From Mobula hypostoma (taxonomy: Eukaryota): a DNA stretch of 64,000 nucleotides. Below are positions 1,151-63,270 of the stretch, in pieces; the stretch's first letter is position 1, and every line of letters begins with the position of its first letter. Made by a program: the position numbers and the translations under genes. Below the pieces are notes generated by a model. That model searched no databases and had not been told where the DNA came from. It worked only from the letters and a program-made list of their open reading frames with translations. The stretch covers positions 109,618,001-109,682,000 of the forward strand of contig NC_086107.1 in NCBI RefSeq assembly GCF_963921235.1, in the 5' to 3' direction.

Positions 1151-1722
1151 AACACGCACAGAATGCTGGTGGAACGCAGCAGGCTAGGCAGCATCTATAG
1201 GAAGAGGTACAGTTGAGATGAAGCTATACTCAGGTTGAAGGAACAGCACCTCATATTCCGTCTGGGTAGCCTCCAACCTGATGGCATGAACATTGACTTC
1301 TCTAACTTCCGTTAATGCCCCTCCTCCCCTTCTTACCCCATCCCTAATTTATTATTTATTTTCTCTCTCTTTCCCTCTCGCAATAACTCCTTGCCTGTTC
1401 TCCATCTTCTTCTGGTGCTCCCCTCCCCCTTTCTTTCTTCCAAGGCCTTCCGTCCCATAATACTCCCCCTTCTCCAGCCTTGTATCCCAGCTCTTGGCTC
1501 CATCCCTCCCCCTCCTGTCTTCTCCTATCATTTCAGATCTCCCTCTCACCCTCCCACTTTCAAATCTCTTACTATCTCCTTTCAGTTAGCCCTGACGAAG
1601 AGCCTCGGCCCGAAACGTCGACTGTACCTCTCCCCATCGATGCTGCCTGGCCTGCTGTGTTCCACCAGCATTTTGTGTGTGTCTTGCTTGAATTTCCAGC
1701 ATCTGCAGATTTCCTCGTGTTT
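1151..1722 (+). mobile_element. Penelope-like element 3' fragment with inverted terminal segment and hammerhead motif
   Basis: 1217-1315 encodes DEAILRLKEQHLIFRLGSLQPDGMNIDFSNFR*, a PLE-type ORF C-terminus. A pyrimidine-rich 3' UTR follows, then CTGACGA..GAAACGTC at 1592-1619. 1151-1216 is an inverted copy of 1618-1682. GGACTCCCA occurs on both flanks, inside a CR1 fragment. Confidence 0.75.
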
Positions 1723-3194
1723 GAGGACTCCCAGGGCCATTTGCGCCTCTGAATTTGCTCCCCATTTAGAAAATAGTCTGCACTTTTATTCCCTACCAAA
1801 GTGCATGACCGCGAACTTCCCTACACAGTATTCCATCGGCCACTTCTTTGTCTTTTCTCCAAACCTGCCCAATATTGAGGAAGTATGAAAGGACAGAGCA
1901 TAATGCAGAATGGAGCGTTACAATTTTAGAGAAAGCACGGGACAGGTAGACGATAAGGTGCAAGGGCCGCAATGAGATAGACCGAGGGTTCACCTTTAAT
2001 AGAGGAGGTCCATTAAAGAATCTGATAAGGAAATCAGAATGCTTGGTGGTCACAGGAACCACACACCAGATTAAGGAGCCACGGCTGATGCAGGGGTTTT
2101 GGGCTCAAATCGCCCGTAGGTGCAACACTCAACCTGCGACGGGGGTCCGCACTCAGCTCAGGCAGAAATACGAGATGCCGGCCGCACTGGACAGCTGCCC
2201 TGTGGTCTCAGCCTCAGGGCATGAACAAACCCGGGACTTCCGGGGGGAGGAAGGTCACACTGGGCTGCCGTGCACCATCGAATGGCCGCTCACTGCCCGA
2301 CCCACGTTCGCTGGACGGCTCGTTTTGTCGTTTTGTTGGGTCACGTTGCCTCCTTGAGGGCTCAGCAGTGGGAAAGGTGACCAACCCCAAACTTCAGGGC
2401 AACAACACTTCAGAGGACCTATCCTGAGCCTAATAGATTCATGCACTGGTGAAGTACATGAAGTTCTAGCTGTACTTCATTGGGAGCTTGAGGAGATTTG
2501 GCACGCCATCATAGACTAGCAAATGTCTACAGATGTACCATAGACAGCATTCTGACTGGTTACATTTCAGCCTGGTGTGGAGGTTGCACTGCACAGGATT
2601 GAAAAGGGCAATCAGTAAGGCAATACCGTAAGATACAGGGGCAGAATTAGGCCATTTGGCCCATCGAGTCCGCTCCGCCATTTCATCATGGTTAGTCCAA
2701 TTTTCCTCTCAGCCCCAGTCTCCAGCCTTCTCCCCGTATCCCTTCATGCCCAGACCAATCAAGAATATATCAACCTGGCGTCACCTCCACGGCTGCCTGT
2801 GGCAAAAAAATTCCACAGATTCTCCACTCTCTGGAGAAAGAAATTCCTCCTCATCTCCGTTCTAAAAGGACGCCCCCCTATTCTGAGGCTGCGCCCTCTG
2901 GTCTTAGACTCTCCCAACAGAGGAAACATCCTCTCTACACCCACTCTATCGAGGCCCTTCACCATTCGATAGGTTTCAATGACGTCTACCCCTCATCCTT
3001 CCGAATTCTAGTGACACCTCAAGAAGGCGACCCTCACCATCCAGGACACACCCTCTGCTCATTCCCACCATCGGGGAGGAGGTACGGGAGCCTGAAGATG
3101 CACAAAATCCCAACCCCTGTTCGTTCCCCTCCACAGATGCTGCCTGACCTGTTGAGTTCCTCCAGCGTTTTGTGTGTGCTGCTCAAGTTAGAGA

Positions 3195-3826
3195 GCAGAA
3201 GATGGCGGGAGGAGAAGATGGCAACGCGGCGCAGCTCTCCGGTGAAATGGTATCATATCGTATTTGTAAGTAGGATGCCGTGCACAATTCTGATTTGATG
3301 GAGGCAGACGTGAGAAAGCACAGAGGAACTTCTGGAGAAATTCCTGAAATGCCCGGTTTGCTGCCGCTGCTACTGTGCAATCGAGAATCTCCGGAGGGAA
3401 GGCCCCAAAATCCCCGGCTTTGCCTGCTGCTGGCAACCGAGGCTGGGGTCGAAGCGTTCGGCAGAGATGGTGCTCGGTGCTCGGTGTCGGAGGCTCGAAG
3501 TTTTCCGACCACTCAGAGTCGGACTGTGGTCGGGCATGGCAGGATGAGTTTTCTTCCTTCTCCCGTCTGCGTGAGATCTGGGACTTTCGAGAGACTTCGA
3601 ACCTTTTTTTTACTGTGCCCAAGGCTTGTTCTTCATCAAGTTATGGTATTGTTGCACTGTTGTAACTATATCTTATAATTGTGTGGTTTTTGTTAGTTTT
3701 TCAGTCTTGGTCTGTCCTGTTTCAGTGATATCACACCGGAGGAATATTGTATCATTTCTTAATGCATGCATTACTAAATGACAATAAAAGAGGACTGCAT
3801 GTCCTCATATTCTAATCTAATCTAAA
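3195..3826 (+). mobile_element. ~630-bp non-autonomous retroposon without tRNA head (copy 1)
   Basis: Colinear with 30018-30682 (-) and 55760-56372 (+). Starts AAGATGGCG and ends AATAAA plus (TCTAA)n tail. No conserved ORF. Confidence 0.75.
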
Positions 3827-5144
3827 TGGGGTTTAAAAGATGCAAACACATTAGGCCAGGGGTGGGGGGGGGGGGAGAACACAGTGAAGAAGCAAGGGGT
3901 AAAAGGTCAAGGTTAATGGTACCGGAACTAAACTGAAATCCTGGTGAAGAGAGAAAAGCCAAGGTTAAAGGTCAGCATTTTCTGGTTTATTTCAGGTTTC
4001 TTGCATCTGCAGCTTTCTTCGTTAGGATTCCTGAGTTTAACTCACTGTGCCTCACTCCCCCACCCCCATCAGAGAAGCCCACCTCAAACCACCGCCCCTC
4101 CCTCTGCCACCATTTCCGCTTTCCTTCTTTTGATTGTTCTCCCTCGTCGACTCACACAAGGTACTTTCACCCGCTTCTGCTGCAACTACAAACACACTTT
4201 AACCTCCAGTTTCCGCCCCCCGCCCCCCCCCACAACCAACCCAATGCTGGCGGAGGGGCCCCTAGACCCAGTTTGGTTCTCCACAGCTGCCAGTGAGTTC
4301 CTCCAGCACCTTGCGCATGCTGCTCTAGATTTCCAGCATCTGCAGAATCTCCTGTTTATAAAGGTGTGATATTCTGCAGATGTTGGGAATCTAGACCAAC
4401 ACACACACACACACGTCAGGCAGCATATACAGAGGGGAAAAAACAGCCATTTCACAGTCCTGATAAAGTGTCCCAACCTGAAACATCGACTGTTTACTCC
4501 CCTCCATAGATGCTGCCTGGCTTACTGAGTTCCTCCAACATTTTGCTGAAGGGGAAAGAGAAGAGGGATTTAACCAATTGGATTGGTCTTCTGAGGAGCT
4601 AGCAGGGACTCAATGGGCCAAATGGCCTTTACTTGCATCACACAATTCAATGAGGAACTATTATTACAAGTTCACTTCTTTGAAAGAGGAAAACAAACAG
4701 CAAGTCAAAGGGGAAACAGGCACTTTGCTAATCAGGGTTGGGCATGAATGGGACTGAACAATATCGGAATGAAAAGGATTACTGTGAGCCTTCTGCCACA
4801 CAGCCCAGTCTCCTCCACGTTCCACGCAGACGGCTAAGCTCCAATTGTCAACAACCCACTTGTGCTCGGCGTTAACCTCTGACCTTCTCATTTAGTCAGA
4901 AACAAACAGTTATCCCTGTGAATTACCCTGCCAAATCCTGGCTCTAAATCCTAAATCGATTGCTGGGTATACTTAAAGCAGAGGTTGAGTGGTTCTTGAT
5001 TCGTAAGGTGGGGGGAGGGGGTGGGAAGGGAGGCGGCTGGAGAACTGGGGCTGAGAGGTAAAGTAAACCGGCCTTGATCGAACAATGGTCTAAATGGCCT
5101 AGCTCTGCTCCTGTCTTAAAACAACACAAAGATCGTCTTCTTGG

Positions 5145-5435
5145 TGGGCAGCGCAGTCACTTTACAGCCCCACTAATCGGGTGGTTCGATTCCCGCCGCT
5201 GCCTGTAAGGATTTTGTACGTTCTCCCGACAGGCGGGTTTCCTCCGGGTGCTCCAGTTTCGTCCCACGTTCCAAAAACGTATGGGTTAGGGTTCGCAAGC
5301 TGTGGGCTTGCTACGGTGCTGCTGGAAGCACGGCGACATTTGCGGGCTGCCCCCAGCATACCCTCGGCTGTTGATGCAAAACGACTCATTTCCTTATAGG
5401 TTTTGGTGCAGATGTGACAACTAAAGCCAATCCTA
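5145..5435 (+). mobile_element. tRNA-derived V-SINE-like element (relatives at 17020-17265, 32500-33360, 46225-46450, 54950-55220)
   Basis: B box GGTTCGATTCC followed by a V-domain-like GGGTTTCCTCCGGGTGCTCCAGTTTC..CCCAC. Multiple dispersed copies. Confidence 0.65.
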
Positions 5436-5743
5436 AAACCTTATTCTTCTTTGTGCAGGCCACAGAAGGTGAGGGTGGTAGCCCACCAGTACGTCACTGC
5501 CTCTCTTCATTCAACTCTCAGAATAAACCGAGGTGCCTCCTGTCCTGTCCCAGGACCCTATCTATCCTAACGTCTCTTAGGCGTTCCAGCATATCCTCCT
5601 TCTCAACCTCAACACATTCCAGCACATTAGCCTGTTGTACACCGACCTCACCAAGGCCCCTCTCACTGGTGAATACTGAAACAAAGATTCCAGTAAGGAC
5701 CTCCCTTGCGTCCTCCAGCTCATGTTTCCTTTTATCCATGGCG

Positions 5744-6042
5744 TTGGCGTGTGGCCAAGTGGTTAAGGCGTTCGTCTAGTGATTTGAAGGTCACTAGTTC
5801 GAGCCTTGGCTGAGGCAGCGTGTGTCCTTGAGCAAGGCACTTAACCACACGTTGCTCTGCGATGACACTGGTGCCAAGCTGTATGGGTCCTAATGCCCTT
5901 CCCTTGGACAACATCGGTGGCGTGGAGAGGGGAGACGCAGCAGGGGCAACTGCCGGTCTTCCATACAACCTTGCCCAGGCCTGCGCCCTGGAAACCTTCC
6001 AAGGCGCAAATGCATGGTCTCATGAGACTAACGGATGACTAT
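5744..6042 (+). mobile_element. tRNA-derived SINE with CORE-like segment (second copy 38617-38893)
   Basis: A box TGGCCAAGTGG, B box AGTTCGAGCC, then GTGTCCTTGAGCAAGGCACTTAACC. Near-identical second copy. Confidence 0.75.
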
Positions 6043-6527
6043 ATCCATGATCAGTTCTACCCTCACTCCAGTCCACATAAGTGTAGAACACCTTGGGGTT
6101 TTCCTTAACCCTACTCACCAAGACCTTCTCAGGTCTCCTTCTAGCCCTGTGTCCACTCCTGAGCTCATTTTTGGCTACTTTACAACTCTCAAAGGACTGC
6201 CTGATCTTTGCTTGAAGATACAGGAGCCTCAGGGCTCACCCCTCCAGGTTCTGGAATTATTAACACTCTTGAACCAAAGGGGATAACTTCACTTGCCCCA
6301 TCACTGAAATGTTCCCATATCCAATGGACTCACTTTCAAGGACTCTTGTTATCATGTTTTTGATATTTATTGCTTATTTATCTATTATTATTATTATTTC
6401 TTTTTGTGTTTCTGCAGCTGGTTGTCTTTTGCATATTGGTTGGGTGCAGTATTTCATTGATTCGATTGTGTTGCTGTGAATGCCCGCAAGAAAATAAATC
6501 TCAAGATTACACATGTGCGTTGATCAC

Positions 6528-6733
6528 GGCCAGTGGCGTAGTGGCATCCACACCAGACCTCCAGGCGAGTCGTTCCGGGTTCGAGCCCATCCGGCCCCTT
6601 GCACGCATTCCATCTGCGTTGGGTTGAGTATCAAGCGAACAACTTGACCTCGTTAAAAAACAGACAAAGTTGCTGAAGAAACGGTAAGGTTGCCGCCCGA
6701 TGTGCCACAAAGCGCGAAGAGGAACAACAACAA
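6528..6733 (+). mobile_element. tRNA-derived SINE (related copy 57193-57397)
   Basis: A box TGGCGTAGTGG, B box GGTTCGAGCCC, (CAA)n tail. Confidence 0.7.
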
Positions 6734-7177
6734 TGTACTTTGATGATAAATTTACTTTGAACTTTCTACAGAGACAAAAAACTTTTTTTTTAAAGTTATT
6801 TTCCTCACTAGCCGCCGACTGGCTGACATTGTTGTTCTGCAAGTTAATAACAATCTCTGCCAACAAAGCCAAATCCACTAGGAGCCCTTAATTGCACTGC
6901 GGGGCTGATTTACAATTAGTTCAGAGCCAGACCCATCTTCAATCAACTATTACACTCGACTTATGATAACAGTTAAGATACCACCCACTCCCTCTTCCTA
7001 ACTAGGTGCTTAGCCGTCTTGTTTGTTAGGCGAGGTTATTAAAATATTTGCTTTCCCACCCAAGTGAGACCTTTGAACCCAGGTGCTGGACACCTGCCAG
7101 GCTGGTAAAGGGCCAGATCCTGAAAAGGGTCAAAGGTCACAACCAGAGCAAACCCTGCCCTGGAGTGAGTATGTATG

Positions 7178-7209
<32 letters not shown>

Positions 7210-8254
7210 GTTATCACTCACGGAAAAAGAGAGACAGAAAAACAGGAAATGCAGTGGTTTTTTTTAAAAAAAGTGAGACAAAAAAACTTGCTGCTGTTTA
7301 CGGGTGGGGACCAATCCTTTACAAGAGATTTTCCCGCAGGCTTGCCAGAGTACATGTTCTGCAGCACCGGGAGCTTGAAAGATTTGGCCATGCGGAGAGA
7401 CCCCGCCCAAGGTTTAAAACCTGCCCGTTCTCGCTCACCGGGTTCGGGGCCCATCTGCTTTCAATCGCGCTGTCGCTTCCAGCCCCGGGGGCAGACAGCT
7501 GCGCCGGCGGCCAGCCACTTCCCCGAGCGCTCCATTCGCCCGAGACGTCGGCAATCCAAGCCTGTCCCCACAGGAAGCAATTGTTCAAGCTGGGCTCTGC
7601 TTAAAAAGGCGCTCCGTGAACCACTTTGCATGCTGCTTCAGTACAGCAAGGGACATCTCTAGGACAGAAGCCAATGTCCGGCAAACAGAGGTGACCCAAA
7701 GCCTGGAGAAATACCCTCCGCTTGCCCGGACAATTGAGGTTCTGTCACTCCAAAGAATAAACTGCACAGACTGAGAAAATTCAGCTCCATCATGGGTGCT
7801 AGCCTGGTAGTATCCAAGACATCTTCAAGGAGCGGTGCCTCAGAAAAGGTGGTGTCCATCATTAATGACCTCCATCACCCAGGACATGCCTTGTTCTCAC
7901 TGTTACCATCAGAACGGAGGTACAGGAGTCTGAAGGCACACACTCAGTGATTCAGGAACAGCTTCTTCCCCTCTGCCATCCGATTTCTAAATGAACACTG
8001 AACCCATGAACCCTACCTCACTATTTTCTTGTACTACTTTAACTATTGAATATACATATGCTGTAATTGAACTTTTTAAAATGTATTTATCATGCATTGT
8101 ACTGTACTGTTGCCGCAAGGTTAACAAATTTCCCGATGTATGCCAGTGATGGTAAACCCAATTCTGATTCAAGAGAAGGGCAGCCTCACCAATCTCCTGA
8201 AACACTTACTCCTCCTTCAGAACTGTAGTGTACAATCTACAAAATGGGCTGCTC

Positions 8255-8727
8255 CGGAAGGAATTCACAAATCTATGACCTTCACTGTTCGAGGTGCAAG
8301 GGCAGGAGGCAGACCAGATCACTTCTGCCCCACAGGTCGCCCTCCAGGTCACACAGACACCCTTCTTGGTGGCTGGGTCGAAGACCTGGAACTCTTCTCC
8401 CCACCCTCCCTACCTGGAGCCACTTCACCAGAAGGAAGGCGACTGTACGAGGCAGCACCCGACCGACACCCTCAAGGGAAATTGGGAACGGGCGCTTCGG
8501 CAGGGCCGACTGTCTGCTCCCCTTTCAGGGATCCCTTCGTGCCCGGCTGTCCTTGGAGAGGGAGCACGCTGTCACGATGTGTACAGTGTGGGGGAATTCC
8601 AGGAACAGTGCGTCACCCAGGGAACTGACTATTCAATAATTACAATCAATTATGACTTGAGCTTGTTAACTGCCTTGTAAATACTTGATGTTTATATTTT
8701 GTATAAATAAACCTTTGTTAAAAAAAG
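8255..8727 (+). mobile_element. L1/Tx1-type LINE 3' end remnant
   Basis: Decayed peptide CLLPFQGSLRARLSLEREHAV resembles Tx1 ORF2 C-termini. Followed by AATAAA (~8706) and an A-run. Confidence 0.5.
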
Positions 8728-10878
8728 TTCTTTTTTTTGCGCAATTAATTTTATATATACACACTGAAATTCAGGGGTTTTTCCCCCTATTATTATGTAT
8801 TGCATTGTACTGCTGCCACAAGATTCACAACATACGCCGGTGATGTTAAACCCGATCCGGATTCGGGTGTGTCTTTTCAGCAATGCTCAAACCCCAAAGG
8901 ATGAATTAGTGGATTTTTAAAAGGAACGACAGAGCCCAGACAGCTGAAGACACAGGCAGTCAACATCAGAAGAACACGGTAAACCGCGGATGCAGGATGT
9001 CGGGGACCTGAGGTCATTGAGAGAACACTCAGCAAAGACGAAAGCCCTTCGGCCTAAATGGTCACCTCAGACCAATACACCCACCCTCGCTAGTCCCATT
9101 TGGCCTACATCCTCTAAACCCAGCCCAGGGTCCATGGGCCCCTCCGTTAATGAGAGGGGTCCATGACATATAAAAAAAAAGGTTGGGAGCCCCTACTCCA
9201 TGGACCAATCCAAATAGCTTTTAAGTATCTCTGAGGATCTGACCTTGACCCAGCATTTCGATGCAGCTACAAAGGAGGCACGACAGCAGCTATATTTCAT
9301 TAGGAGCTTGAGGAGATTTGGTACGTCACCAAAGACACTCGCAAATGTCTACAGATGTTCTGTGGAGAGCATCCGAACTGACTGCATCACTGTCTGGCAC
9401 AGGGTCAAAGTAAGCTGCAGAGAGTTGTAAAATTAGTCAGCTCCACCATGGACACTAGCCTCCACAGTATCTTCAAGGGACAATGCCTCAAAAAGGGGGC
9501 GTCCATCATTAAGGACCCCCATCACCCCAGCCATGCCCTGTTCTCATTGCTACCATCAGGGAGGAGGTACAGGAGCCTGAAGGCACACACTCAATGATTC
9601 AGGGCCAGCTTCTTCCCCTCTGCCATCCGAGAATAAATATAAACGTACACACATTCCATTTAAAACATCTAAACCCAGTATATTTACCTAAACCTGTAAT
9701 TCTTGATTCCCCCAGCCCAGGTGAAAGACTGCACGCCTCCACCCACCCTGTCTACATCCTGATACACTTTGGAACCAAAACCACAAAACAAAACTGCAAT
9801 AGCTAGAAATCCAGAACAAAAATCAGACCCAAATCAGTTTAATATCACCCGCTCATGTCCTGAAATTTGTTGTCTTTGCAACAGCAGTACAATGAAATAT
9901 ATAATAATAGAAAAAAAACTGGATTACAGTAAGTATATATATTAAAGAGTAAGTTAGATAAGTAGTGCAAAAATATAAAAAAAATCTAGTGAGGTACTGT
10001 TCTTGGGTTCAATGTCCATTCAGAAATTGGATGTTAGGGGGAAGAAGCTATTCCTGAATCATTGAGTGTGTGTCTTCGGGCTCCTGCACCTCCTCCCTGA
10101 TGGAGAACAGGGCATGACCTGGGTGATGGGGGTCCTCAATAATGGACGCCGCCTTTTTGAGACATCACCTCAAAACAGAGGATAACGGGGACTCAAAATT
10201 CCGAGGAAAGGTCACCGACCCAACACACTGACTGCGCTTCTCTCCCCAGGGGTAACCTGGCCCGCTGAGTACTTCGGGCAGGTTCAGTTGTTTGAGAAGT
10301 TTCTCAACTGGTTAACACTTAGCCTGGGGGTACAAGAGTTCACCGGTACATCCTCAAGTTTCGGCAAACTCTTATTAGAACATTACCTTTAAATTTCATC
10401 CTCCCTCTCCAACACACCCAGCCTCATTCCACCTACAACAGCCCGAATATACAAAAAATTCGTCCAACCTCCCCAGTCTGAAATACTATTTCACTTTAAA
10501 TTAAATAATCTTTTGAATGGGTGCGAATAAAAGACTACGTTAAAGTTAGGGCCAGTGGAAGGCCTCTTTAAGAACGTTTAAAGTTCTCTTACACAAGGCG
10601 TTAGAAAACACCACCGCACGCAACGACTTCTACAAGCTGCAGCGACGGATAAAGTGCCTTTTTAAAAATAAATTTTAGAAAGGAAGTGAATTTGAAATGT
10701 TTGTGAAAGCCGATAGTTCCATTAAACTTCATTCCAAGAGTAGTCGTAACGCAAAAGATCCGCTCAGTCCCAGAAGAAAACTTTACAAAACTTTTCAAAA
10801 CTTTATCCAAACTTTCTGGTTTTTTTCACACCCCCCCCCCCACCCACCCCTTTTGCGCCTGTCCGCACACAAAGTTAC

Positions 10879-10977
10879 CTGGATGAACTGAATAGTAAGA
10901 GCACTCTTGCCTACACCGCCGCCTCCGACCACCACCAGTTTGTATTTCTCCTGAGGACCACCGTCTTTATTGCTCAT
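10879..10977 (-). CDS. RRAS: R-Ras family small GTPase, coding exon 1 (RRAS or RRAS2)
   Basis: [33 protein letters not shown] contains the R-Ras/TC21 GGGGVGKS P-loop. It ends at a phase-0 donor CAG|GTAACT, where R-Ras-family exon 1 ends. Exon 2 was not found in 1-10878, so it probably lies outside the window. RRAS versus RRAS2 is unresolved. Confidence 0.85.
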
Positions 10978-11819: not shown

Positions 11820-14650
11820 TAGTGTTCATGGGTTCAATGTCCATTCAGAAATCGGATGGCAGAGGGGAAGAAGCTGTTCCTGAATCATTGAGTGTGTGAT
11901 TTCAGGCTTCTGTACCTCCTTCCTGATAGTAGCAATGAGAAGAGGGCATGTCCTGGCTGATGGGGGTCCTTAATGATGGACGCTGCCTTTCTGAGGCATC
12001 ACTCCTTGAAGATGTCCTGGATACTACAGAGGCTGGTGCCCGTGGTGGAGCTGACTGAGTTTGCATCGCTCTGCAGCTTACTTCGATCCTGTGCGGTAGC
12101 CCCCTCCCCATACCAGACAGTGATGCAGCCAGTCAGAACGCTCTCCACAGTACATCTGTAGAAATTTGTGAGTGTGTTTGGTGACATAACAAATCTTCTC
12201 AAACTCCTAATGAGATATAGCCAGTGTTGTGCCTTCATTGTAGCTGCGTCGATATGTTGGACCAGGTTAGATCCTCAGAAATACTGACACCCAGGAACTT
12301 GAAATTGCTCACCCTTTCCACTTCTGATCCCTCAATGAGGATAGTCATTGTAGTCATAGTCATACTTTATTGATCCCGGGGGAAAGTGGTTTTCATTACA
12401 GTTGCACCATAAATAATTAAATAGTAATAAAACCATAAATAGTTAAATAGTAATATGTAAATTATGCCAGGAAATAAGTCCAGGACCAGCCTATTGGCTC
12501 AGGGTGTCTGACCCTCCAAGGGGGGAGTTGTAAAGTTTGATGGCCACAGGCAGGAATGACTTCCTATGACGCTCTGTGTTGCATCTCGGTGGAATGAGTC
12601 TCTGGCTGAATGTACTCCTGTGCCCACCCAGTACATTATGTAGTGGATGGGAGACATTGTCCAAGATGGCATGCAACTTGGACAGCATCCTCTTTTCAGA
12701 CACCACCGTCAGAGAGTCCAGTTCCATCCCCACAACATCACTGGCCTTACGAATGAGTTTGTTGATTCTGTTGGTGTCTGCTACCCTCAGCCTGCTGCCC
12801 CAGCACACAACAGCAAACATGTTCGCACTGGCCACCACAGACTCGTAGAACATCCTCAGCATCGTCCGGCAGATGTTAAAGGACCTCAGTCTCCTCAGGA
12901 AATAGAGACGGCTCTGACCCTTCTTGTAGACAGCCTCGGTGTTCTTTGACCAGTCCAGTTTATTGTCAATTCGTATCCCCAGGTATTTGTAATCCTCCAC
13001 CATGTCCACACTGACCCCCTGGATGGAAACAGGGGTCACTGGTACCTTAGCTCTCCTCAGGTCTACCACCAGCTCCTTAGTCTTTTTCACATTAAGCTGC
13101 AGATAATTCTGCTCACACCATGACAAAGTTTCCTACCGTAGCCCTGTACTCAGCCTCATCTCCCTTGCTGATGCATCCAACTATGGCAGAGTCATCCGAA
13201 AACTTTTGAAGATGACAAGACTCTGTGCAGTAGTTGAAGTCCAGGGTGTAAATGGTGAAGAGGAAGGGAGACAAGACAGTCCCCTGTGGAGCCCCAGTGC
13301 TGCTGATCACTCTGTCGGACATTTCCACCTGGGGTTCAGTTAACAATGGTTGTGTTGTCAGCAAAATGATAGATGGCATTTGAGCTGTGCCTGGCCACAC
13401 AGTCACGGGTGTCGAGAGAGTAGGGCAGTGGGCTAAGCACACAACCCTGAGGTGTGCCAGTGTAGATTGTCAGCGAGGTGGAGATGTCACTTCCGATCCG
13501 CACAGACTGTGGTCTTCCGGTTAGGAAGTCGAGGATCCGTTTGCAGAGGGAGGTACAGAGGCCCAGGTTCTGGAGCTTTTCAATCCGAACTGTAAGAATG
13601 ATAGTGTTAAACGCTGAGCTTTATTTAATAAACAGCATCGTGATAGAGGTATTTGTATTGTCCAGGTGATCCAAGGCCGTGTGAAGAGCCACCAAGACCA
13701 CATCCGCTGTAGACCTATTGTGGCAATAGGAAAATTGCAGTGGGTCCAGGTCCTTGCTGAGGCAGGAGTTGATTCTAGTCATTACAAACCTTTCAAAGCA
13801 TTCCAGCACCTTAGATGTGAGTGCTACTGGACTACAGTCATTAAGGTAGATCACCCTGCTCTTCTTGGGCACTGGTATAATCGTTTTGAAGCAGGTGGGA
13901 GCTTCCGACTGTAGCAAAGATAGATTGAAAATGTCTTTGAACCACTCCGCCATTTGGTTGCCACAGATTTTCAGAGTCGTATCAGTACTCCACTGGAGCC
14001 TGTCAGCTTGCAAGGGTTCACCCCCTTCAAAGGCAGCCTGACGTCAGCCTCTGAGACAGAGATCATGGGGTCACCGTAGGGATCCTCACAGCTGTAGTTT
14101 TATTCTCCCTTCTAAAGTGAGCATAGAAGACGTTGAGCTCGTCTGGGTGTGAAGTATCGCTGCCATTCATGATGTTGGGTTTCACCGCGTGGGAGATTAT
14201 GGCCTGCAAACCCTGCCAGGGTTCACAAGATGGGATTTGAGCTGTGCCTGGCCACACGGTATTGCGTGTAGAGCAGTGGACGAAACACGCATCCTTGATT
14301 CGCACCGGCGTTGATTGTCAGCGAGGAGATGTTATTTCCAATCCGCACTGACTGTGGCCTCCTGATGAGGTCAAGGATCCAGATGCAGGGGGAGGTACAG
14401 AGGGCAACGTTTTCGGAGTTGTTGACTGGAATTGGGGGTAGGATTATGTTGAACGCCGAGCTGTAGTCTATAAACAGCAGCCTGACGTAGGTATGACTAT
14501 TGTCCGGGTGATCCAAGGCCAAGCACAGATCCAGTGAGATTGCGTCTGCTACGGGCCTATTATGGGAACAGGCAAATTGTAGCACGTCCAGGTCCTTGCT
14601 GAGGCAATTGTGGATGTGAGCGCAACTGGGTGGCAGTCATTGAGTTGAGA
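11820..14650 (-). mobile_element. Cluster of decayed Rex1/Babar-like LINE fragments
   Basis: RT motifs DLDPLQF.Y..NRST.D, LFIDYSSAFN, LY.LR.LR.F, FYRCTVES.LT in several frames. Confidence 0.75.
12345..13321 (-). mobile_element. Young Rex1/Babar LINE 3' fragment with (ATGACT)n tail
   Basis: GAPQGTVLSPFLF, KFSDDS, KTKELVVDLRR, YKYLG, RLYFLRRL. Near-identical to 18894-19358, 23748-25022 and 31620-31997. Confidence 0.85.
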
Positions 14651-27690: not shown

Positions 27691-27884
27691 AGCCTTTTCC
27701 AAAAGCTCCCTTCTGGAGAGCACTGTAGGGCTAGTAAAACAAAAACTCATGCCATCTTAGAAGTTCCTTCCCCCAGGCAGTTAATCTGATCAGCCATTCT
27801 AGTTAGCCCCCCACCACCCCCTCTATTATCTCAAGTTCAAAGCTCAAAGTAAATTTTATGATCAAGGTACATCATCATACACAT

Positions 27885-47248: not shown

Positions 47249-47269
47249 TAGTACTCTGCAAAGCACAGA

Positions 47270-48959: not shown

Positions 48960-49596
48960 AATTCTGAATGCTCCTTGAGGTGGTTATAGCTGGGGCAGGT
49001 AGTGGGGACAAGCTCCCACAACCTATTAAAGGCTCCCAATGGCATGCATCTCAAATAGCCTCTGACAACCAAGTCCAGCTCCTGACCATCACATGTGGCT
49101 TAGCTACGAAGCCCGGCGGAACCATTTCTACTGACAGGAGAAGGGGCAAAGGCAGGTTATTGGCGCTTTAAAACCTGTCACTTCGGGCAGATGGGGCTCA
49201 TCAGCCGTGGTTGGCAGCTCATCTAGCAGAGGGAAAGTTAAGCCACACGTGATGGTCAGGAGCTGGACTTGGTTGTCAGGGGCTATTTGAGATGCATGCC
49301 ATTGGGACCATTTAATAGGTAGTGGGAGCTTGTCCCCACTACCACCCCTGGCCATAACTACCTTAAGGAACATTCTGATCTCAAACCTCCGCTACTTTGC
49401 ATCTATACACACTCATGGGAAAAGTCCACGGCAGGAGTCCCCCAGGGCAGTCTAGCGTTGAGTTCAACGCTGACTGGCAACTCCTGCGATGCTGCTGGTG
49501 CCAAACGGTATTGGTCTCCGCCGTTCCTTTGGAATTCGTCAGATGTGTGGAGAGGGCAAATTTTGCTGCATGAGCAACAACCTGCTCTCCATATCG
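48960..49596 (+). mobile_element. RTE-related non-autonomous retroposon with an internal inverted duplication; resumes at about 53929-54008
   Basis: 48960-49103 and 49239-49379 are inverted copies. The element appears to be split by the CR1 insertion. Confidence 0.55.
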
Positions 49597-49892
49597 GAGA
49601 AGGAAGTCTGAGAATCGGAGCCAGAGTGCGGCGGGAGCCATTTTGATTTTTCTTATCATTGGAGTTCAGAGGGGTGGGACTGCGCAGGCGTGTAACATCG
49701 GGCAGTGAAATGCGGAAGATTTAAAAGGAACAGAGCCTTATACAGCGGGCAGCGTCAGTTTGCAGGCAGCGGAGTGAGCTGGGAGCAGAGTGAAGACTTA
49801 AGGGCTTTGGCTCAATGGGCTTCGGCGGAAACAGGCGAGACAAAGTAGGTTTGGTTTTCAATTTTTCCTGTTATTTGAGGAAAGGGGGAAGT

Positions 49893-50827
49893 ATGAGTGT
49901 GAGGGCAGCTTGCTGTTCTCGGTGTCAGATGTGGGAAGCCCTGGAGTCTCCTAGTCTCCTGTACGTCCACATTTGCGCCAGGTGCGCCAAGCTGCAGCTC
50001 CTAAGGGACCGCGTTAGGGAACTGGAGCTGCAGCTCGATGACTTTCGTCTGGTCAGGGAGAGTGAGGAGTTGATAGAGAGGAGTTACAGGCAGGTGGTCA
50101 CACCGGGGCCACAGGAGGCAGACAAGTGGGTCACGGCTAGGAAGGGGAAGAGGAAGTGTCGGGTACTAGAGTAGCTGTGTAGCTGTGCCCCTTGACAATA
50201 AGTACTCCTGTTTGAGTACTGTTGGGGGGGGACAGCTAACCTGGGGGAAGCAACAGTGGCCATGCCTCCAGCACAGAGTCCGGCCCTGTAGCTCAGAAGG
50301 GTAGGGAAAGGAAGAGGAGGGCAGTAGTAATAGGGGACTGGGTAGTTAAGGGGTCAGATAGGTGATTCTGTGGACGCAGTCCAGAGACCCGAATGGTAGT
50401 TTGCCTCCCTGGTGCCAGGGTCCGGGATGTTTCTGATCGCATTCAAGATATCCTGAAGTGGGAGGGTGAGGAGCCAGAGGTTGTGGTACATATAGGTACC
50501 AATGACATAGGTAGTAAAAGGGAAGAGGTCCTGAAAGGAGAATATAGGGAGTTAGGAAGGGAGTTGAGAAAAAGGACTGCAAAGGTAGTAATCTCAGGAT
50601 TACTGCCTGTGCCACACGACAGTGAGAGTAGGAATACAATGAGGTGGAGGATAAATGCGCGGCTGAGGGATTGGAGCAGGAGGCAGGGATTCAAGTTTCT
50701 GGATCATTGGGACCGCTTTTGGCGCAGGTGTGACCTGTACAAAAAGGACAGGTTGCACTTGAATCCTAGGGGGACCAATATCCTGGCGGGGAGATTTGCA
50801 AAGGCTACTGGGGAGACTTTAAACTAG
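49893..50827 (+). pseudogene. CR1 ORF1: zinc finger + leucine zipper + SGNH/GDSL esterase, disrupted
   Basis: CCSRCQMW..HICARC, LRDRVRELELQL, CLPGA, VVHIGTND, DRLHLN. Stop and frameshift near 50174. Confidence 0.85.
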
Positions 50828-50917
50828 AATGGTTGGGGGGGGGCAGGTGGGAATCAAATTGAAGAGACTAGGAGAGAGGAGGTTAGTTGACAAATAGAGA
50901 AAGCCAGTAGACAGTGT

Positions 50918-53854
50918 GTGAGGGGGGATAGGCAGGTGACAGAGAAGGGGAGCAGTCAGACCAAAGATGTAGGGGAGAAGGAAGAAAAAGATAATAAAGT
51001 TGTTTGCACCATTAGGGATAAACAGAGAGTAAGAGGTGGAGAGTTTCTTAAATGCATCTATTTTAATGCTAGGAGCATTGTAAGAAAGGTGGATGAGCTT
51101 AGAGCATGGATTGATATCTGGAAATATGATGTTGTAGCTATTAGTGAAACATGGTTGCAGGAGGGGTGTGATTGGCAATTAAATATTCCTGGATTTCATT
51201 GCTTCAGGTGTGACAGAATCAGAGGGACAAGAGGGGGAGGTGTTGCATTGCTTGTCAGAGAAAATATTACAGCGGTGCTTTGGCAGGATAGATTAGAGGG
51301 CTCGTCTAGGGAGGCTATTTGGGTGGAATTGAGGAATGGGAAAGGTGTAGTAACACTTATAGGGGTGTATTATAGACCACCTAATGGGGAACGAGAATTG
51401 GAGGAGCAAATTTGTAAGGAGATAGCAGATATTTGTAGTAAGCACAAGGCTGCGATTGTGGGAGATTTTAATTTTCCACACATAGACTGGGAAGCCCATT
51501 CTGTAAAAGGGCTGGATGGTTTGGAGTTTGTAAAATGTGTGCAAGATAGTTTTTGCAGCAATACATAGAGATACCAACTAGAGAAGGGGCAGTGTTGGAT
51601 CTCCTGTTAGGGAATGAGATAGGTCAGGTGACAGAGGTATGTGTTGGGGAGCACTTTGGGTCCAGTGATCACAATGCCATTAGTTTCAATATAATTATGG
51701 AGAAGGATAGGACTGGACCCTGGGTTGAGATTTTTGATTGGAGAAAGGCTAACTTTGAGGAGATGTGAAAGGATTTAGAAGGAGTGGATTGGGACAATTT
51801 GTTTTATGGGAAGGATGTAATAAAGAAATGGAGGTCATTTAAAGGTGAAATTTTGAGGGTACAGAATCTTTATGTTCCTGTTAGCTTGAAAGGAAAGGTT
51901 AAAAGTTTGAGGGAGCCGTGGTTTTCAAGGGATATTGGAAACTTGGTTCAGAAAAAGAGAGAGATCTACAATAAATACAGGCAGCTTGGAGTAAATGAGG
52001 TGCTCGAGGAATATAAAGAATGTAAAAAGAATCTTAAGAAAGAAATTAGAAAAGCTAAAAGAAGATATGAGGTTGCTTTGGCAAGTAAGGTGAAAATAAA
52101 TCCAAAGGGTTTCCACAGTTATATTAATAGCAAAAGGATAATGAGGGATAAAATTGGTCCCTTAGAAAATCAGAGTGGACGGCTATATGTGGAGTCAAGA
52201 GAGATGGGGGTGGTTTTGAACAATTTCTTTTCTTTGGTGTTCACTAAGGAGAAGGATATTGAATTGTGTAAGGTAAGGGAAACAAGTAGGGTAATTATGG
52301 AAACTATGATGATTAAAGAAGAGGAAGTACTGGTGCTTTTAAGGAATATAAAAGTGGATAAGTCTCTGGGTCCTGACAGGATATTCCATCAGACCTTGAG
52401 GGAAGTTGGTGTGGAAATAGCAGGGGCTCTGACAGAAATATTTCAAATGTCATTAGAAACGGGGATGGTGCCGGAGGATTGGTGTATTGCTCGTGTGGTT
52501 CCATTGTTTAAAAAGGGTTCTAAGAGTAAACCTGGCAATTATCAGCCTGTGAGTTTGATGTCAGTGGTGGGTAAATTGATGGAAAGTATTCTTAGAGATG
52601 GTATATATAATTATCTGGATAGACAGGGTCTGATTAGGAACCGTCAACATGGATTTGTGCGTGGAAGGTCATGTTTGACAAATCATATTGAATTTTTTGA
52701 AGAGGTTACTAGGAAAGTTGACAAGGGTAAAGCAGTGGATGTTGTCTATATGGACTTCAGTAAGGCCTTTGACAAGGTTCCACATGGAAGGTTGGTTAGG
52801 AGGATTCAATTGTTAGGTATTAATATTGAAGTAGTAAGGTGGATTCAGCAGTGGCTGGATGGGAGACGCCAAAGAGTAGTGGTGGATAACTGTTTGTCAG
52901 ATTGGAGGCCAGTGGCTAGTGGTGTGCCTCAGGGATCTGTACTGGGCCTGATATTGTTTGTCATATACATTAATGATCTGGATGATGGGGTGGTAAATTG
53001 GATTAGTAAGTAGTCAGATGATACTAAGATAGGTGGAGTTGTGGATAATGAAATAGGTTTTCAAAGCTTGCAGAGAGATTTAGGCCAGTTAGAAGAGTGG
53101 GCTGAAAGATGGCAGATGGAGTTTAATGCTGATAAATGTGAGGTGCTACATTTTGGTAGGATTAATCAAAATAGAACATACATGGTAAATGGTAGGGCAT
53201 TGAAGAATGCAGTAGAACAGAGGGATCTAGGAATAATGGTGCATAGTTCCCTGAAGGTGGAATCTCATGTGGATAGGGTGGTGAAGAAAGCTTTTGGTAT
53301 GCTGGCCTTTATAAATCAGAACATTGAGTATAGGAGTTGGGATGTAATGTTGAAATTGTACAAGGCATTAGTAAGGCCAAATTTGGAGTATTGTGTATGG
53401 TTCTGGTCACCAAATTATAGGAAAGATGTCAAGAAAATTGAGAGAATACAGAGAAGATTTACTAGACTGTTACCTGGGTTTCATCTCCTAAGTTACAGAG
53501 AAAGGTTGAACAAGTTGGGTCTTTATTCTTTGGAGCGTAGAAGGTTGAGGGGGGACTTGATAGAGGTATTTGAAATTATGAGGATAGATAGATAGAGTTG
53601 ACATGGATAGGCTTTTTCCATTGAGAGTGGGGGAGATTCAAACAAGAGGACATGAGTTGAGAGTTAAAGGGCAAAAGTTTAGGGGTAACATGAGGGGGAA
53701 CTTCTTTACTCAGAGAGTGGTAGCTGTGTGGAAGGAGCTTCCAGCAGAAGTGGTTGAGGCAGGTTCGATGTTGTCGTTTAAAGTTAAATTGGACAGTTAT
53801 ATGGACAGGAAAGAAATGGAGGGTTATGGGCCGAGTGCAGGTTGGTGGGACTAG
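50918..53854 (+). pseudogene. CR1 ORF2 (APE endonuclease + reverse transcriptase), disrupted
   Basis: NARSI, ISETW, GDFN, SDH, QHGF, DFSKAFDKV, GVPQGSVLG. Frameshift near 51555 and a stop at 51766. Catalytic YADD is now TAG-TCA-GAT-GAT at 53011. Confidence 0.92.
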
Positions 53855-59514: not shown

Positions 59515-60717
59515 CTACAGACCTGATAAACAGTCGACCGACTGAAATCGCACAAATGACTTTACGCCCGCTGGCGATGAGTTGATGATCTCCGAGGAGC
59601 TCCTTCTGCGCAGAGCAGTCAGCCGATGTTTTGGCCCATTGTCCCTGCGCTCACTTCTCCCCTGCCTCTCTCGCGCCATCGCGCTGTACAGGGGCATGTT
59701 AGTCTTCACGGTGTTGCCAAACTTGGAATAGTCAACCGCGTACCTGCCCTCTTCCTCAGTCACGATGGGCACGAACCTATGGCCCCAGAGTATCTCCTCC
59801 GGCAGGTAGGAGGTACGCACTTGGGTCGTGATGCCTGTGGTCTCCACCACACCTTCCAGCAGGACCACCACCTCAAGATCTTCTTGCTGGAGATCAGACT
59901 CGGACAGAGCGTAGAGCGGGCTCTTCTCGTCAATGGTGTGGCTTATGATCAGGGGGGACACTAGGAAGATGGCGTTGGGTTGCACCGAGTTCTCAACCTG
60001 GATGTCGATCTGGGAGATGGGGATCACCTCCCCCTCCTGCGTAGTGGTCTTCTTCACCAGTTGCATTCGGATGGTCGCGCTGATGATCATGCTCTTCCTC
60101 AGGTCGCCCACCCGGAACATGAAGCAGAGCTTACCGTTCCTCTGCGCTATGACCGCGTGCTTGCTGAAGATGATGGTCTCCGCTCTGCGGTTGGCCTGGG
60201 CGGTCTTCATGAAAATACAGCCCAGCATGACGGCGTTGACGATGAGGCCCGTTATGTTCTGGATGATAAGGATGGTGATGGCCATCGGGCACTCCTCTGT
60301 CACCATCCTGCCGCCGAACCCTATGGTCACCTGCACCTCGATGGAGAAAAGGAAGGCAGAGGTGAAAGACTTGATGCTGGTGATGCAAGGCACGGCCCCC
60401 TCCTGCCCAGCATCCAAGTCTCCGTGGGCGAAGGCAATGAGCCACCAGAGCATGGCGAACACAATCCAGCTGCACAGGAAGGACATGGTGAAGATCACCA
60501 ACGTGTACGGCCACTTAAGGTCCACCAGGGTGGTGAAAACGTCTTGAAGGAAGCGCCCCTGCTCTCGGATGTTCTTGTGGGCCACATTGCAGCCTCCGTT
60601 CTTTGAGACGAAACGGGCCTTCCTCGACCTGGTGCAGTATCGGGGCTGTGACAGGTTGTCCTCCACTAATCTGGTCAGCAGGTACTCGTCTGGGATGATG
60701 CCCTTCCTCGCCAGCAT
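59515..60717 (-). CDS. KCNJ11: ATP-sensitive inward rectifier K+ channel subunit, Kir6 family (KCNJ11-like; Kir6.2 or Kir6.3)
   Basis: Intact 400-aa ORF with N-terminus [44 protein letters not shown], the Kir6-specific TIGFG filter (60313-60327), DLRKS, DYSKFGN and an RXR motif. No intron in the CDS. The paralog assignment is uncertain. Confidence 0.93.
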
Positions 60718-60735
60718 CGTGGGTGTAGGTAACCA

Positions 60736-60770
60736 CCTGTGGGGCCAGTTAGAAACAGGAAGAAAGTGTT
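60736..60770 (-). promoter_or_regulatory. Splice acceptor 19 nt upstream of the Kir6 ATG
   Basis: Minus strand CTTTCTTCCTGTTTCTAACTGGCCCCACAG|GTGG, with a pyrimidine tract and CTAAC. Confidence 0.6.
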
Positions 60771-63235
60771 AGGCTCTTTTCCAAGTTGACGCACTTCTAT
60801 ATTACCCTTAATGGACTACAACCTTGGAACATTACTACGGCAACTTGTACCCAGTCATGTTTTAGGCTTCAATTTCTTTGTTTGCTGCTGATTGGTTATT
60901 CATGAATTATTTTTCTGCCTGTTGTCAAGTTTATTATTGCACAGTGAGGTACAACTACAAGGAATAAAATAACTAGCTTGAAGCAGTATCGCAGGTACAT
61001 GGCTTCTGATAACAACACCTCGAACACAAGTTACGTATACATTTACGTCACGACAATGTACAACGAGGTCACCGGACCAGACACTGAAGCTAGTGGATAT
61101 AAAAGTGTTTATTCAACAAAAGCAAGCAATTGGCATCATAATTCGAGACACTCTTGGAAGAAGAGGCCCGCTCGACTCAGTAGGATGTGGCTTTTTTTAC
61201 ATGCTAAAGATCAAAGGCAACAGCAGGCCAATGTACCTACAATGCTTCCTTTAAATTACATGTAGTTTTCAAATGCCTCCTTCTTAGCACCCACACTCCA
61301 GACACCCAAAATGAATCACAAACACAAGAAAGTCTGCAGATGCTGGAAATCCGAGGCAACACACACACAAAATGCTGGAGGAAGTCAATAGGCCAGGCAA
61401 CAGGTATGGAAAAGAGTAAACAGTCAATGTTTTGGGCCGAGACCCCAGAATGGAAGTTAATTGCCACCGACTCTCAGCCACATTCTTGTAGATGCAGGCA
61501 TCTGAGTTTAATAGTTCAGAGCTGCATTTTTAATTCGATCTGCAATCCACATTCAAATCTGAAGATTGGTTGCTGGTGAAATTAATATCTGCTATGTAGC
61601 CCAACTCTAGAATATGACCCAACCTATCACACCGAAGGAAAACCAAACTGCTAAACAAGGAAGTGCGAAGATACCCAGGATCAGAGACAAGTCTATGGTG
61701 ATGCAGAAGGTGATCAATTGTTAGAGGAGGATTAGATCGGATCAGTTCAAGAGCCTGTCGGTAAATCTCATCTAAACATTGAACATCTGAATCAATATTG
61801 ACATTGAACATCTGTTTGGTGACTGTAGTATGGAGCGGATTGATGATGGCGCTAAACGGCAACTCCTTTGCTTGCATTTTTGGAAACAGCTCTACTTCTA
61901 TCTTTATTTCTCCCTTTCAGGGTTCTTTTGAAGACCCTGACCTGAAGTTACACGCTGACTATGGGGGAATGCGGGAATGGGACCCGCTCTCGGGGTTTCA
62001 TGACCAGCCATTGTTGCTCGGCACACCAAGGATTCAGCCCAAGAGTCCAGCTCTGATTCAGAAGCCTAGGATCCCAAGGCTCCGAAGACGGGCGGATCGA
62101 GGGTCGGTGTCCCAACAGGAGATCCATGTGTCGTTGGGGGGTGTCAGAATATCTAAGGCTGTGTGCCCAGATCTTTAAGCGCAGAGCACGAAAAGAAGCG
62201 ACGTAACGGACTTTTAACATCGTAAACCAGCGAGTTGTTTGTTTTGTCTCCCCGCTCGCTGTGAAACGGAGACACCCCTTTCTCCCTTATTAGGGAGGGA
62301 GGGAGAGAGAGAGAGAGAGAGAGAACCTGTGGTATGTCAAACACCGGGTGAAACACAAAGTCTTTAGGGTAACTGCAAGTCTGTCTTTGCCATTGCCTTG
62401 CTCACGCTTGAGTGTTCGGTGACGGGTACCGATGCTTTTTTTCTGCCGGTGGGGGGAGGGGGATTGTTGCTTGCTGCCGCCAACATGCAGGAGGGAGGGG
62501 AGCTGGGGGGGGGTGGTCTTTGGGGTTCTAATATTTAACTGTCGTTCATTTGGGGCACTCCTCTGTTTTTGTGGATGGTTGCGAAGAAAAGCATTTCAGG
62601 ATGTATATTGTATACATTTCTGAGATTAAATTGTACCTTGGAAACCTTTTTGAAATATTCTCAATGCAGTACTGAGGAAGTGCCACACTGTTGAATTCCA
62701 GTGACTTTAAACCATAATCCAAGCTGTGGCTTTTTGACCGGTAGGACTAGGGTTGTGCAAGTTGGTTCAAGAACCTGCGTGTTTCAGAAGAGTACCTTTC
62801 TCACTTCTGTTTAATGAATCAGACTCAGGTTATTCGGGCAAGCATCAACATGCAGCTCAATATTCCCCACTCAGGGTTGTGGACTGGGATCAAGGATACA
62901 AAATCTAATAGGGCCCCTTCTCCTTCCACTCCTCCCATTGTCCATTCTCCTATCAGCTCTTTACCTCTTCCACCTATCACCTCCCAGCCTCTTGCTTCAT
63001 AGAGCAACACACACCCAAAATGCTGGAGGAACTCAGCAGGTCAGGCAACATCTATGAGGAGGGAAAAGGAGTCAATGTGATGGAGGATCTCTGCCCAAAA
63101 CATCGACTCTTTATTCCTTTCCATAGATGCTGGCAGAGCTGCTGAGTTCCTCCAGCATTTTGTGCGTTACCTGTCACCTGCTTGCATCCTTCCTCCCCAC
63201 CATCTTATTCTGTCTTCCATCCTCCTCCTTTTCCA

Positions 63236-63270
63236 ATCCTGATGAAGGGTCTCGGCCCGAAACGTCGACA
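63236..63270 (+). ncRNA. Minimal hammerhead ribozyme motif in a PLE-derived repeat cluster (62905-63358)
   Basis: CTGATGA (63239-63245)-A-GGGT CTCG GCCC-GAAA (63259-63262)-CG-TC, with predicted cleavage after 63266. Stem I is partly decayed. Confidence 0.6.

Follow-up and report, generated by a model that had tools for sequence, protein, structure and literature searches.

Hammerhead motifs in a 64-kb stretch of a ray genome as probable truncated 3' ends of a Penelope-like retrotransposon

In this study, we believe that the hammerhead motifs scattered through a 64-kb window of Mobula hypostoma (the whole stretch of DNA that was analysed) are very probably the 5'-truncated pseudo-LTR 3' ends of a Penelope-like retrotransposon (PLE), which encodes a reverse transcriptase (RT) together with an endonuclease of the GIY-YIG type and carries a known minimal hammerhead, and that these ends were likely inserted by target-primed reverse transcription of uncut RNA and are likely decaying. 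No new system is involved; what is added is a further host lineage and a density that is out of the ordinary.

A fixed-spacing scan of the window for CTGANGA-N13-GAAA gave seven exact matches, at 1592+, 16100-16123-, 22500+, 25605+, 31473-31496-, 35256-35279- and 63239+, and 15 matches when up to one mismatch was allowed, whereas shuffles averaged 6.5 matches and never exceeded 14. With a profile of the ribozyme region, 17 matches were obtained in the window at E<=0.1, of which 16 also passed E<0.001, and none of the 10 shuffles used as a control gave a match at E<0.05. The 16 strong matches are the same six "intact" and ten "decayed" copies listed in an earlier sequence-only reading, so that its recurrent motif and its density (16 per 64 kb, approximately one per 4 kb) were recovered in full. 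Its list of six core-intact copies was correct for all six but one short, since the copy at 31465 is also core-intact, which makes seven. The 17th match, absent from that list, is a diverged piece at 37788-37803(-). With a wider family profile, 28 pieces were found, amounting to 3,911 bp or 6.1% of the window (Table 1). An RRAS2-like gene has copies in its first-intron region, and others lie upstream of a coding exon of a KCNJ11-like gene. The Rfam search of the window gave 0 matches at the gathering threshold, and the exact pattern was present at 0 loci in each of the contig sets scanned (metagenome, viral and prokaryotic). Judged by its sequence, the repeated motif is the already-described minimal hammerhead of Penelope end-pieces, of an ordinary kind though dense.

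The motif was evaluated in a 16-row alignment of 15 listed copies and the diverged one, from which the copy at 23430, split by an insertion, was excluded. The majority sequence has the core CUGANGA ... GAAA ... UH, and 11 of 11 core bases are kept in 7 of the 16 copies. There is an extra A between A9 and G10.1 in all 14 copies covering that site, and the pair G10.1-C11.1 is G-C in nine rows, G.U in four and unpaired in three. Helix III is replaced by a palindrome at 15.1-16.1, which is ACGU in 9/16 rows, and most of the other rows have CpG-type changes. This core, extra base and palindrome agree with the earlier description of a minimal type I hammerhead in which ACGU stands in for helix III. 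An intact core does not imply an intact ribozyme: among the seven core-intact copies, only 35247-35284(-), with its match at 35279, has every pair together with the core and ACGU, and a G.U closes its stem II. Energy folding did not give the active fold for most copies, and the folding of isolated copies did not surpass that of shuffles (z -0.17 to +1.32). By prediction, most copies cannot self-cleave. Lunse et al. 2016 are said to have found that PLE hammerheads cleave as dimers.

Table 1. Pieces of the hammerhead-bearing family in the 64-kb window
Positions	Strand	Feature	Details
1151-1216	-	Short, inverted arm belonging to insertion 1; extends from 3' terminus 1 back to near the scissile bond	Unit 1151-1722 flanked by 8-9 bp duplication
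1217-1315	+	GIY-YIG endonuclease ORF end: last 32 codons and stop	88% identical to P0009
1316-1586	+	Pyrimidine-rich pseudo-LTR spacer, ORF stop to hammerhead	P0009 and P0011 read-through tails match its start
1587-1624	+	Minimal hammerhead, core intact (1592)	One mismatch in stem I, one in stem II
1625-1722	+	3' segment: terminus 1 at ~1682 (after GT repeats), optional ~41-nt tail, terminus 2 at 1722/1723	
3117-3182	+	Short copy without ribozyme	Start ~2 nt 3' of scissile bond
4367-4545	.	Inverted composite: minus arm 4367-4446 (terminus 2 to scissile bond), plus arm 4448-4545	Plus-arm hammerhead decayed: G8 to A, ACAU
16028-16644	-	Longest copy: frameshifted endonuclease C-terminus, spacer, hammerhead 16091-16128, terminus 1	Core intact (16123), G10.1-C11.1 lost
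20105-20186	-	Decayed copy	U4 and G5 altered
22143-22270	+	Copy truncated within core	Start G8, end terminus 2
22420-22632	+	Copy with hammerhead 22495-22532, core intact (22500)	Stem II broken, 1/4 pairs left; AUGU for palindrome
23200-23450	-	Single copy split by later insertion (23399-23450 and 23199-23282)	Flanking duplication
25577-25735	+	Copy with hammerhead 25600-25637, core intact (25605)	First stem I pair gone
31398-32265	-	Long copy: endonuclease remnant 32139-32265, spacer interrupted by LINE fragment, hammerhead 31464-31501	31496: ACAU instead of ACGU; U17
34212-34307	+	Decayed copy	G12 and A15.1 altered
35183-35295	-	Short insertion with hammerhead 35247-35284	Exact 14-bp target duplication
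37727-37803	-	Old diverged copy	New relative to earlier list
39729-39855	.	Inverted composite: minus arm terminus 1 to G8; plus arm 40-nt tail only	In 14-bp duplication
40140-40255	+	Copy starting 4 nt 5' of scissile bond	Preceded by 11-nt inverted stem II piece
48266-48397	.	Inverted composite, geometry as 39729-39855	Flanking duplication
61316-61445	-	Copy truncated at stem II, without CUGAUGA	Ends at terminus 2
63003-63360	.	Inverted arm 63003-63078, defective hammerhead copy 63078-63167, partial tandem copy 63169-63360	Tandem copy has core-intact hammerhead 63234-63271 (63239), 3/5 stem I pairs left

The copies at 1217+, 16644- and 32265- run straight into the endonuclease C-terminus of ray ORFs, as found by tblastn with P0009 (E=1e-18, 1e-11 and 9e-7 for these three). 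The best protein matches were RT-endonuclease ORFs whose annotated hosts are Hypanus sabinus and Mobula hypostoma. The matching ray ORFs have an RT motif of the 'YIDD' type, a Cx3-4CxxC linker and GIY-YIG, and a CX2-5CxxC linker between RT and endonuclease is present in P0007-P0011. The Pfam GIY-YIG family was matched by 4/5 ray ORFs at E 5e-4 to 2e-3, all below the curated cut-off, and by neither of two short window peptides. Nothing beyond GIY-YIG-type leads below its thresholds came from the ESM Atlas; no solved structure matched P0007, and the protein-based search of viral contigs confirmed no locus. A query with the whole of P0002 led to an unrelated retroviral-type protein and was set aside. 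No full-length element or RT remnant lies within the 64-kb window, and the link from hammerhead to RT passes via annotated ray proteins, the database records in which the RT is seen, rather than via one contiguous DNA record. The order in the copies is ORF end, stop, pyrimidine spacer, hammerhead and two alternative 3' termini, and both sequence variants of the family include copies reaching the endonuclease ORF. With three copies continuing into ray GIY-YIG ORF ends, the earlier proposal of a Penelope-derived carrier repeat in a cartilaginous fish is supported. The carrier is likely a Neptune-clade PLE, as judged from the linker motif and the host and not from a tree.

Two fixed 3' ends lie approximately 41 nt apart, and 25 of the 28 pieces finish at one of them (12 and 13). 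In three of four public sequencing runs, loose ends were found at 1680-1682 and 1722-1723, and in the fourth at 1682; the sequences compared were assembled contigs of these runs. The 5' ends are staggered from -548 to +73. Flanking duplications were found in 5/17 units at a background p<=0.0023, including 3/6 units with inverted arms, and the target duplications of copies are roughly 9-17 bp. There are five two-armed composites. In four of them each terminus ends one arm, and the fifth is the partial tandem, whose outer ends likewise lie one at each terminus. 5' truncation, an optional tail, an inverted arm and one partial tandem were all found among the window copies; the accessible texts on PLEs describe a tail, an inverted 5' copy, partial tandems and 5' truncation (PMC8557442, PMC3846280). 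No structure emerged when the tails of 16 copies were folded as a consensus. A possible A-U/U-A swap was seen in a tail hairpin at 1658/1664, resting on one pair.

For the origin of the copies as truncated insertions, we propose the following course. By analogy with a Poseidon element of Anolis, for which this was demonstrated (PMC11167929), the element protein may nick both target strands, and reverse transcription may begin at two fixed positions within the RNA, 3' of the ribozyme. Copying would mostly halt after 60-200 nt, and the ribozyme, just upstream of the start sites, would be amplified as a passenger. Strands primed at different sites would give one inverted arm, with the tail confined to one end. 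The absence of an ORF from the copies is due to 5' truncation, and the RNA template was likely uncut because 19 of the 22 arms that reach the scissile bond extend beyond it. The ribozyme is predicted to be functional only in the master element RNA, as an ACGU-mediated dimer that is probably protein-assisted. The ribozyme may not be wholly passive, because 13 of the 22 arms entering its footprint stop within it; this is 0.021 ends per nt, compared with 0.005 in the 3' flank and 0.012 in the upstream one (p=0.007 versus both flanks, p=0.19 versus upstream alone).

This enrichment could also be read as a sign that the ribozyme shapes the insertions, with a protein dimer holding two RNAs whose minimal hammerheads pair in trans, and a cut or RT stall setting the 5' end of the short arm. 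We consider this unlikely, and the enrichment is inflated because short 3' pieces are under-detected. The arms overlap in three composites, which means that two template passes are needed, and their short arms end at offsets 26-31, 27-28 and 23-24 on a scale that puts the scissile bond at 27/28; however, one of the three goes 4-5 nt beyond that bond. With offsets that were hand-read from the junctions and are approximate, 5 ends fall at the scissile bond in 224 nt of exposure versus 8 in 406 for the rest of the footprint (p=0.52), and cleavage-defined 5' ends were rejected as unsupported. In the accessible text of PMC11167929, the Anolis protein, a predicted dimer, promotes hammerhead cleavage, but hammerhead mutants still insert and no RNA ends were found at the cleavage site. 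Unlikely, too, is the conjecture that the two-armed insertions record a dimeric Penelope RNP with two RNAs at one target, in which an active double hammerhead arises by ACGU pairing in trans and the short arms stop where the cut or fold dictates. If it were true, ray genomes would hold the largest hammerhead family described, and their insertions would be a fossil record of in vivo trans-dimer cleavage.

The sequence-only reading had favored a retrozyme-like non-autonomous family, that is, a retrozyme- or SINE-like pseudo-LTR derivative spreading by its own small, possibly circular RNA, and we believe that this is very improbable. Most copies are indeed only 60-200 bp and without coding sequence, one partial tandem has two motifs 161 nt apart (63078/63239), and a preprint, in its accessible part, derives animal retrozymes from PLE pseudo-LTRs and reports them in its single chondrichthyan (10.64898/2026.07.22.740005). 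However, no tandem monomer array of the unit is among the 15 TRF rows of the window, the 5' ends are staggered as given above, ORF-linked copies occur in both variants, and, in the tandem pair, the motif that comes first has defects at C3, A9 and G12. The motif is also of the minimal PLE type, whereas retrozymes, as far as the accessible text goes, have canonical type I hammerheads in tandem repeats of 150-450 bp (PMC7229834). The ORF is missing through 5' truncation, and the retrozyme-like claim is not supported.

As truncated insertions of an autonomous element, the copies decay like neutral DNA and likely have no function now. Mismatches in the aligned copies were found at 28/120 CpG-site positions (23%) versus 78/834 elsewhere (9%, p=3e-5), and CpG decay affects G12, C11.1 and the palindrome. 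The core mismatch was 4.6% versus 10.5% in the tail (p=0.04) with variant-diagnostic columns included, and 6/131 versus 37/453 (p=0.19) with the three such columns removed, in copies that were partly detected via the core. In stems I and II, 77% of cells pair versus 20-46% when slid. There is one double-sided change, and 445/500 shuffles reach the observed count; covariation is not to be expected among copies made from a single master. Selection on the core was rejected as unsupported in view of the p value of 0.19 and the lack of covariation. In the RRAS2-like gene (minus strand), whose intron is the only one placed, both ribozyme-bearing copies are antisense. The claim that the family seeds self-cleaving motifs is not supported by these results. 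Host co-option of the dispersed copies as cis-acting self-cleaving elements in introns or UTRs, to which their density, their position in the RRAS2-like first-intron region and upstream of the KCNJ11-like exon and the p value of 0.04 might point, is considered extremely improbable, given the CpG decay, absent covariation, p value of 0.19 and antisense intron copies above and the lack of in vitro cleavage by a lone minimal hammerhead in the accessible text of PMC4209133.

The ray insertions offer material on the role of the hammerhead in Penelope transposition. Thousands of duplication-bounded insertions in ray genomes would make it possible to ask statistically if the ends of insertions are determined by cleavage, and the two-terminus, two-arm geometry suggests that Poseidon-type internal two-site priming also occurs in a likely Neptune element. 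In the literature on hammerheads and Penelope in cartilaginous fish, no account of the ray family was found in the accessible texts; Lunse et al. 2016 or the supplements of the retrozyme preprint may list the motif.

Studies have shown that minimal hammerheads occur in the pseudo-LTRs of metazoan PLEs. According to the accessible part of Cervera and De la Pena 2014 (PMC4209133), they share with the window motif CUGANGA, the extra base, a G-started stem II, GAAA, a 2-nt palindromic insert, UH and a closing stem I, as well as a U-rich 5' flank and mostly solitary copies with some close opposite-strand pairs; the solitary copies are ascribed there to truncated PLEs. The short stem II of the window motif (4 bp, CUCG loop) resembles their Culex, Xenopus(2) and Latimeria(3) entries, and two supplement files that were searched contain no entry for a shark, a skate or Callorhinchus. 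Approximately 4,000 copies in coelacanth and 9,000 in Xenopus are reported (PMC4209133), and extrapolation from the local one per 4 kb in one window suggests far more in the ray. Similarly, Poseidon PAc of Anolis (Frangieh et al. 2024, PMC11167929, in its accessible part) has a hammerhead upstream of two RT start sites, an interval between them that is an optional 30-40 bp tail, and insertions that cross the cleavage site, as are found here. In contrast to Poseidon, the ray element has a Cys linker, and its terminus 1, known from sequence alone, follows GU repeats, whereas PAc has an AC-rich loop. Neptune-clade EN+ PLEs (Craig et al. 2021, PMC8557442, accessible part) share RT, the CX2-5CxxC linker and, at the C-terminus, GIY-YIG with a Cys/His motif, together with 5' truncation, partial tandems, an inverted 5' copy and a one-ended tail; the linker is not exclusive to Neptune, as Nematis has the same. 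The non-LTR retrozymes of animals, in the accessible texts (PMC7229834; 10.64898/2026.07.22.740005), are like the window family non-coding, PLE-related and high in copy number and have a type I hammerhead. However, they are fixed monomers in tandem with canonical ribozymes and circular RNA, whereas the window family is dispersed, variably truncated and ORF-linked, and its minimal motif is without helix III.

The hammerhead recognised in the sequence-only reading was identified correctly, and the motif agrees with the minimal hammerhead ribozyme (min-HHR) in the accessible text of PMC4209133. The majority sequence comprises stem I CAGUC/GACUG, the core CUGANGA, an extra A, stem II GGGU/GCCC with a CUCG loop, GAAA, CG and UC; like the min-HHR, it has an extra base after A9, G10.1-C11.1 and a palindromic 15.2-16.2, without helix III. 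According to the same text, single min-HHR motifs show no cleavage and dimers low cleavage. The window scan yielded 7 exact and 15 near matches to CTGANGA-N13-GAAA (near-match shuffle mean 6.5). Searching with a profile built on the 40-nt ribozyme region gave 16 copies with E<0.001 plus a single diverged piece at E=0.1, whereas 10 control shuffles gave 0 matches at E<0.05. These 16 copies are exactly those reported before, and the proposed density of about one motif per 4 kb holds within the window. The Rfam search of the window returned no match to the hammerhead motif. The whole family contributes 28 pieces (3,911 bp, 6.1%), with a mean pairwise identity of 76% (63-89%; 105 pairs, ribozyme plus tail). 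One public run had 74,212 contigs aligning to the 661-bp stretch 1100-1760 at 80% or above, a figure that is not a copy number; among the runs listed, 16-42% of sampled words were present in 24 public runs from 15 organisms.

Three copies adjoin ORF ends whose peptides match proteins annotated in Hypanus sabinus and Mobula hypostoma, which bears out the Penelope-derived carrier. No RT remnant of the element was found within the window. The linker motif between RT and endonuclease in the annotated proteins is a mark of Neptune and Nematis Penelope-like elements (PLEs) in the available part of PMC8557442, and only Neptune and Poseidon PLEs are reported from vertebrates in that of preprint 10.64898/2026.07.22.740005; therefore, judged from linker and vertebrate host, the element likely belongs to the Neptune clade. 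The endonuclease tail is apparently spliced into predicted Hypanus sabinus isoforms (annotated proteins P0001, P0007, P0012 and P0013) of ATP synthase c, DIPK1C, ABHD14A and ULK1, reflecting either frequent exonisation or annotation noise.

The family had also been read as retrozyme-like and non-autonomous. Retrozymes are described, in the accessible portions of PMC7229834 and preprint 10.64898/2026.07.22.740005, as fixed monomers in tandem with canonical ribozymes. We rejected this identity because TRF found no tandem array of the hammerhead unit in the window, the 5' ends are scattered between positions -548 and +73 counted from the core, and ORF-linked copies are present for both sequence variants. 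In the only tandem pair, 63078/63239, the first motif is defective. What carries the motif is a Penelope-like element truncated at its 5' end, not a retrozyme.

The 11 core bases were retained in 7/16 aligned rows (15 listed copies and the diverged piece, the split copy at 23430 being excluded), and core, both stems and ACGU were all retained only in 35247-35284(-). CpG positions deviated from the majority in 28/120 cells versus 78/834 elsewhere (p=3e-5), with changes on G12, C11.1, the palindrome and C17. Outside CpG positions, the core differed in 6/131 cells and the tail in 52/494 (p=0.04); with three variant-diagnostic columns removed, the tail figure was 37/453 (p=0.19). The comparison is tilted towards core conservation because copies were partly detected via the core. 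The stem I/II covariation test proposed earlier, applied to the aligned window copies, gave a single double-sided change across 9 pairs, a count not above that of shuffled data. Single copies folded no better than shuffles. By CpG decay, core versus tail and stem covariation, the window copies gave no sign of selection, and they are likely inert.

Coding features and two-armed insertions located in the window
Feature	Position	Strand	Detail
ORF end upstream of hammerhead copy	1217-1315	+	peptide searches
ORF end upstream of hammerhead copy	16426-16644	-	peptide searches
ORF end upstream of hammerhead copy	32139-32265	-	peptide searches
First coding exon, Ras-family gene	~10880-10977	-	Pfam Ras E=1e-4
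Single-exon inward-rectifier K+ channel coding ORF	59515-60717	-	best match Kir6.2/KCNJ11
Two-armed insertion	39729-39855		plus arm tail only; minus arm begins at plus arm's stop point; ~14-bp flanking duplication
Two-armed insertion	48266-48397		plus arm tail only; minus arm begins at plus arm's stop point; ~14-bp flanking duplication

Host genes were sought in the 258 frames with 75 or more codons, so that short exons may be missed. We take the Ras-family exon to be RRAS2-like; because no later exon of this gene was found among these frames in the window, 1-10880 is probably its intron 1. Copies 1592 and 4460, which bear the ribozyme, run antisense to this gene. A splice acceptor likely lies just upstream of the KCNJ11-like ORF, near 60738. 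A near full-length LINE, presumably CR1-type, occupies 49794-53595(+), with a GDSL-esterase ORF1, APE endonuclease and RT disrupted by stops. Young LINE 3' fragments, 97-98% identical, lie at 12429-13132, 18895-19218, 23835-24355 and 31724-31990, and one such fragment splits Penelope copy 31398-32265. The minisatellite 21108-21511 (37-bp unit, 10.9 copies) is made of part of a dispersed repeat of LINE origin and carries no ribozyme. Two MITE-like inverted repeats lie at 46871-47175 and 48957-49384 (120-nt arms 96% complementary; 149-nt arms 89%). The open frame 27254-27760(+), which to us resembles a Gypsy gag fragment, had no match in Pfam.

For 25 of the 28 pieces the end falls on either of two termini about 41 nt apart (12 on one, 13 on the other), and two of the other three are interrupted by later insertions. 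When contigs of four public runs were mapped to 1100-1760, loose ends among the best-supported rows clustered at 1680-1682 in 4/4 runs and at 1722-1723 in 3/4. This 41-nt interval corresponds to the PLE tail, which the accessible text of PMC11167929 attributes to two internal RT start sites. Tail positions 1658 and 1664 covary in T/A versus A/T frequencies across four public runs, and the two may form a single compensatory pair within a hairpin of the tail. In five insertions, two long arms face opposite ways. Four of these have one arm ending at each terminus; the remaining one, a partial tandem, shows the same arrangement at its outer ends. Flanking duplications occur at background p<=0.0023 in 5/17 units. 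Inverted arms, one-end tails, partial tandems and duplications are all described for PLEs in the available parts of PMC8557442 and PMC3846280. Pyrimidine-rich pieces resembling the pseudo-LTR (pLTR) spacer adjoin two insertions (39600-39729 and 62900-63003), and the element may prefer older pLTR copies for insertion.

By 5'-end offsets read by hand, 13/22 arms terminate within the ribozyme footprint (enrichment p=0.007 versus both flanks, p=0.19 versus the upstream flank), a comparison affected by poorer detection of short 3' pieces. Within the footprint, the cut site was not preferred over the other positions (p=0.52). Among three short arms that overlap, two end within about 3 nt of the scissile bond, and the third 4-5 nt beyond. 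A possible trans-dimer role of the ribozyme at insertion is unsupported. Of the arms reaching the scissile bond, 19/22 extend past it; therefore, the template of insertions was likely mostly uncut or religated, the same outcome as that given for the Anolis element in vitro in the accessible text of PMC11167929.
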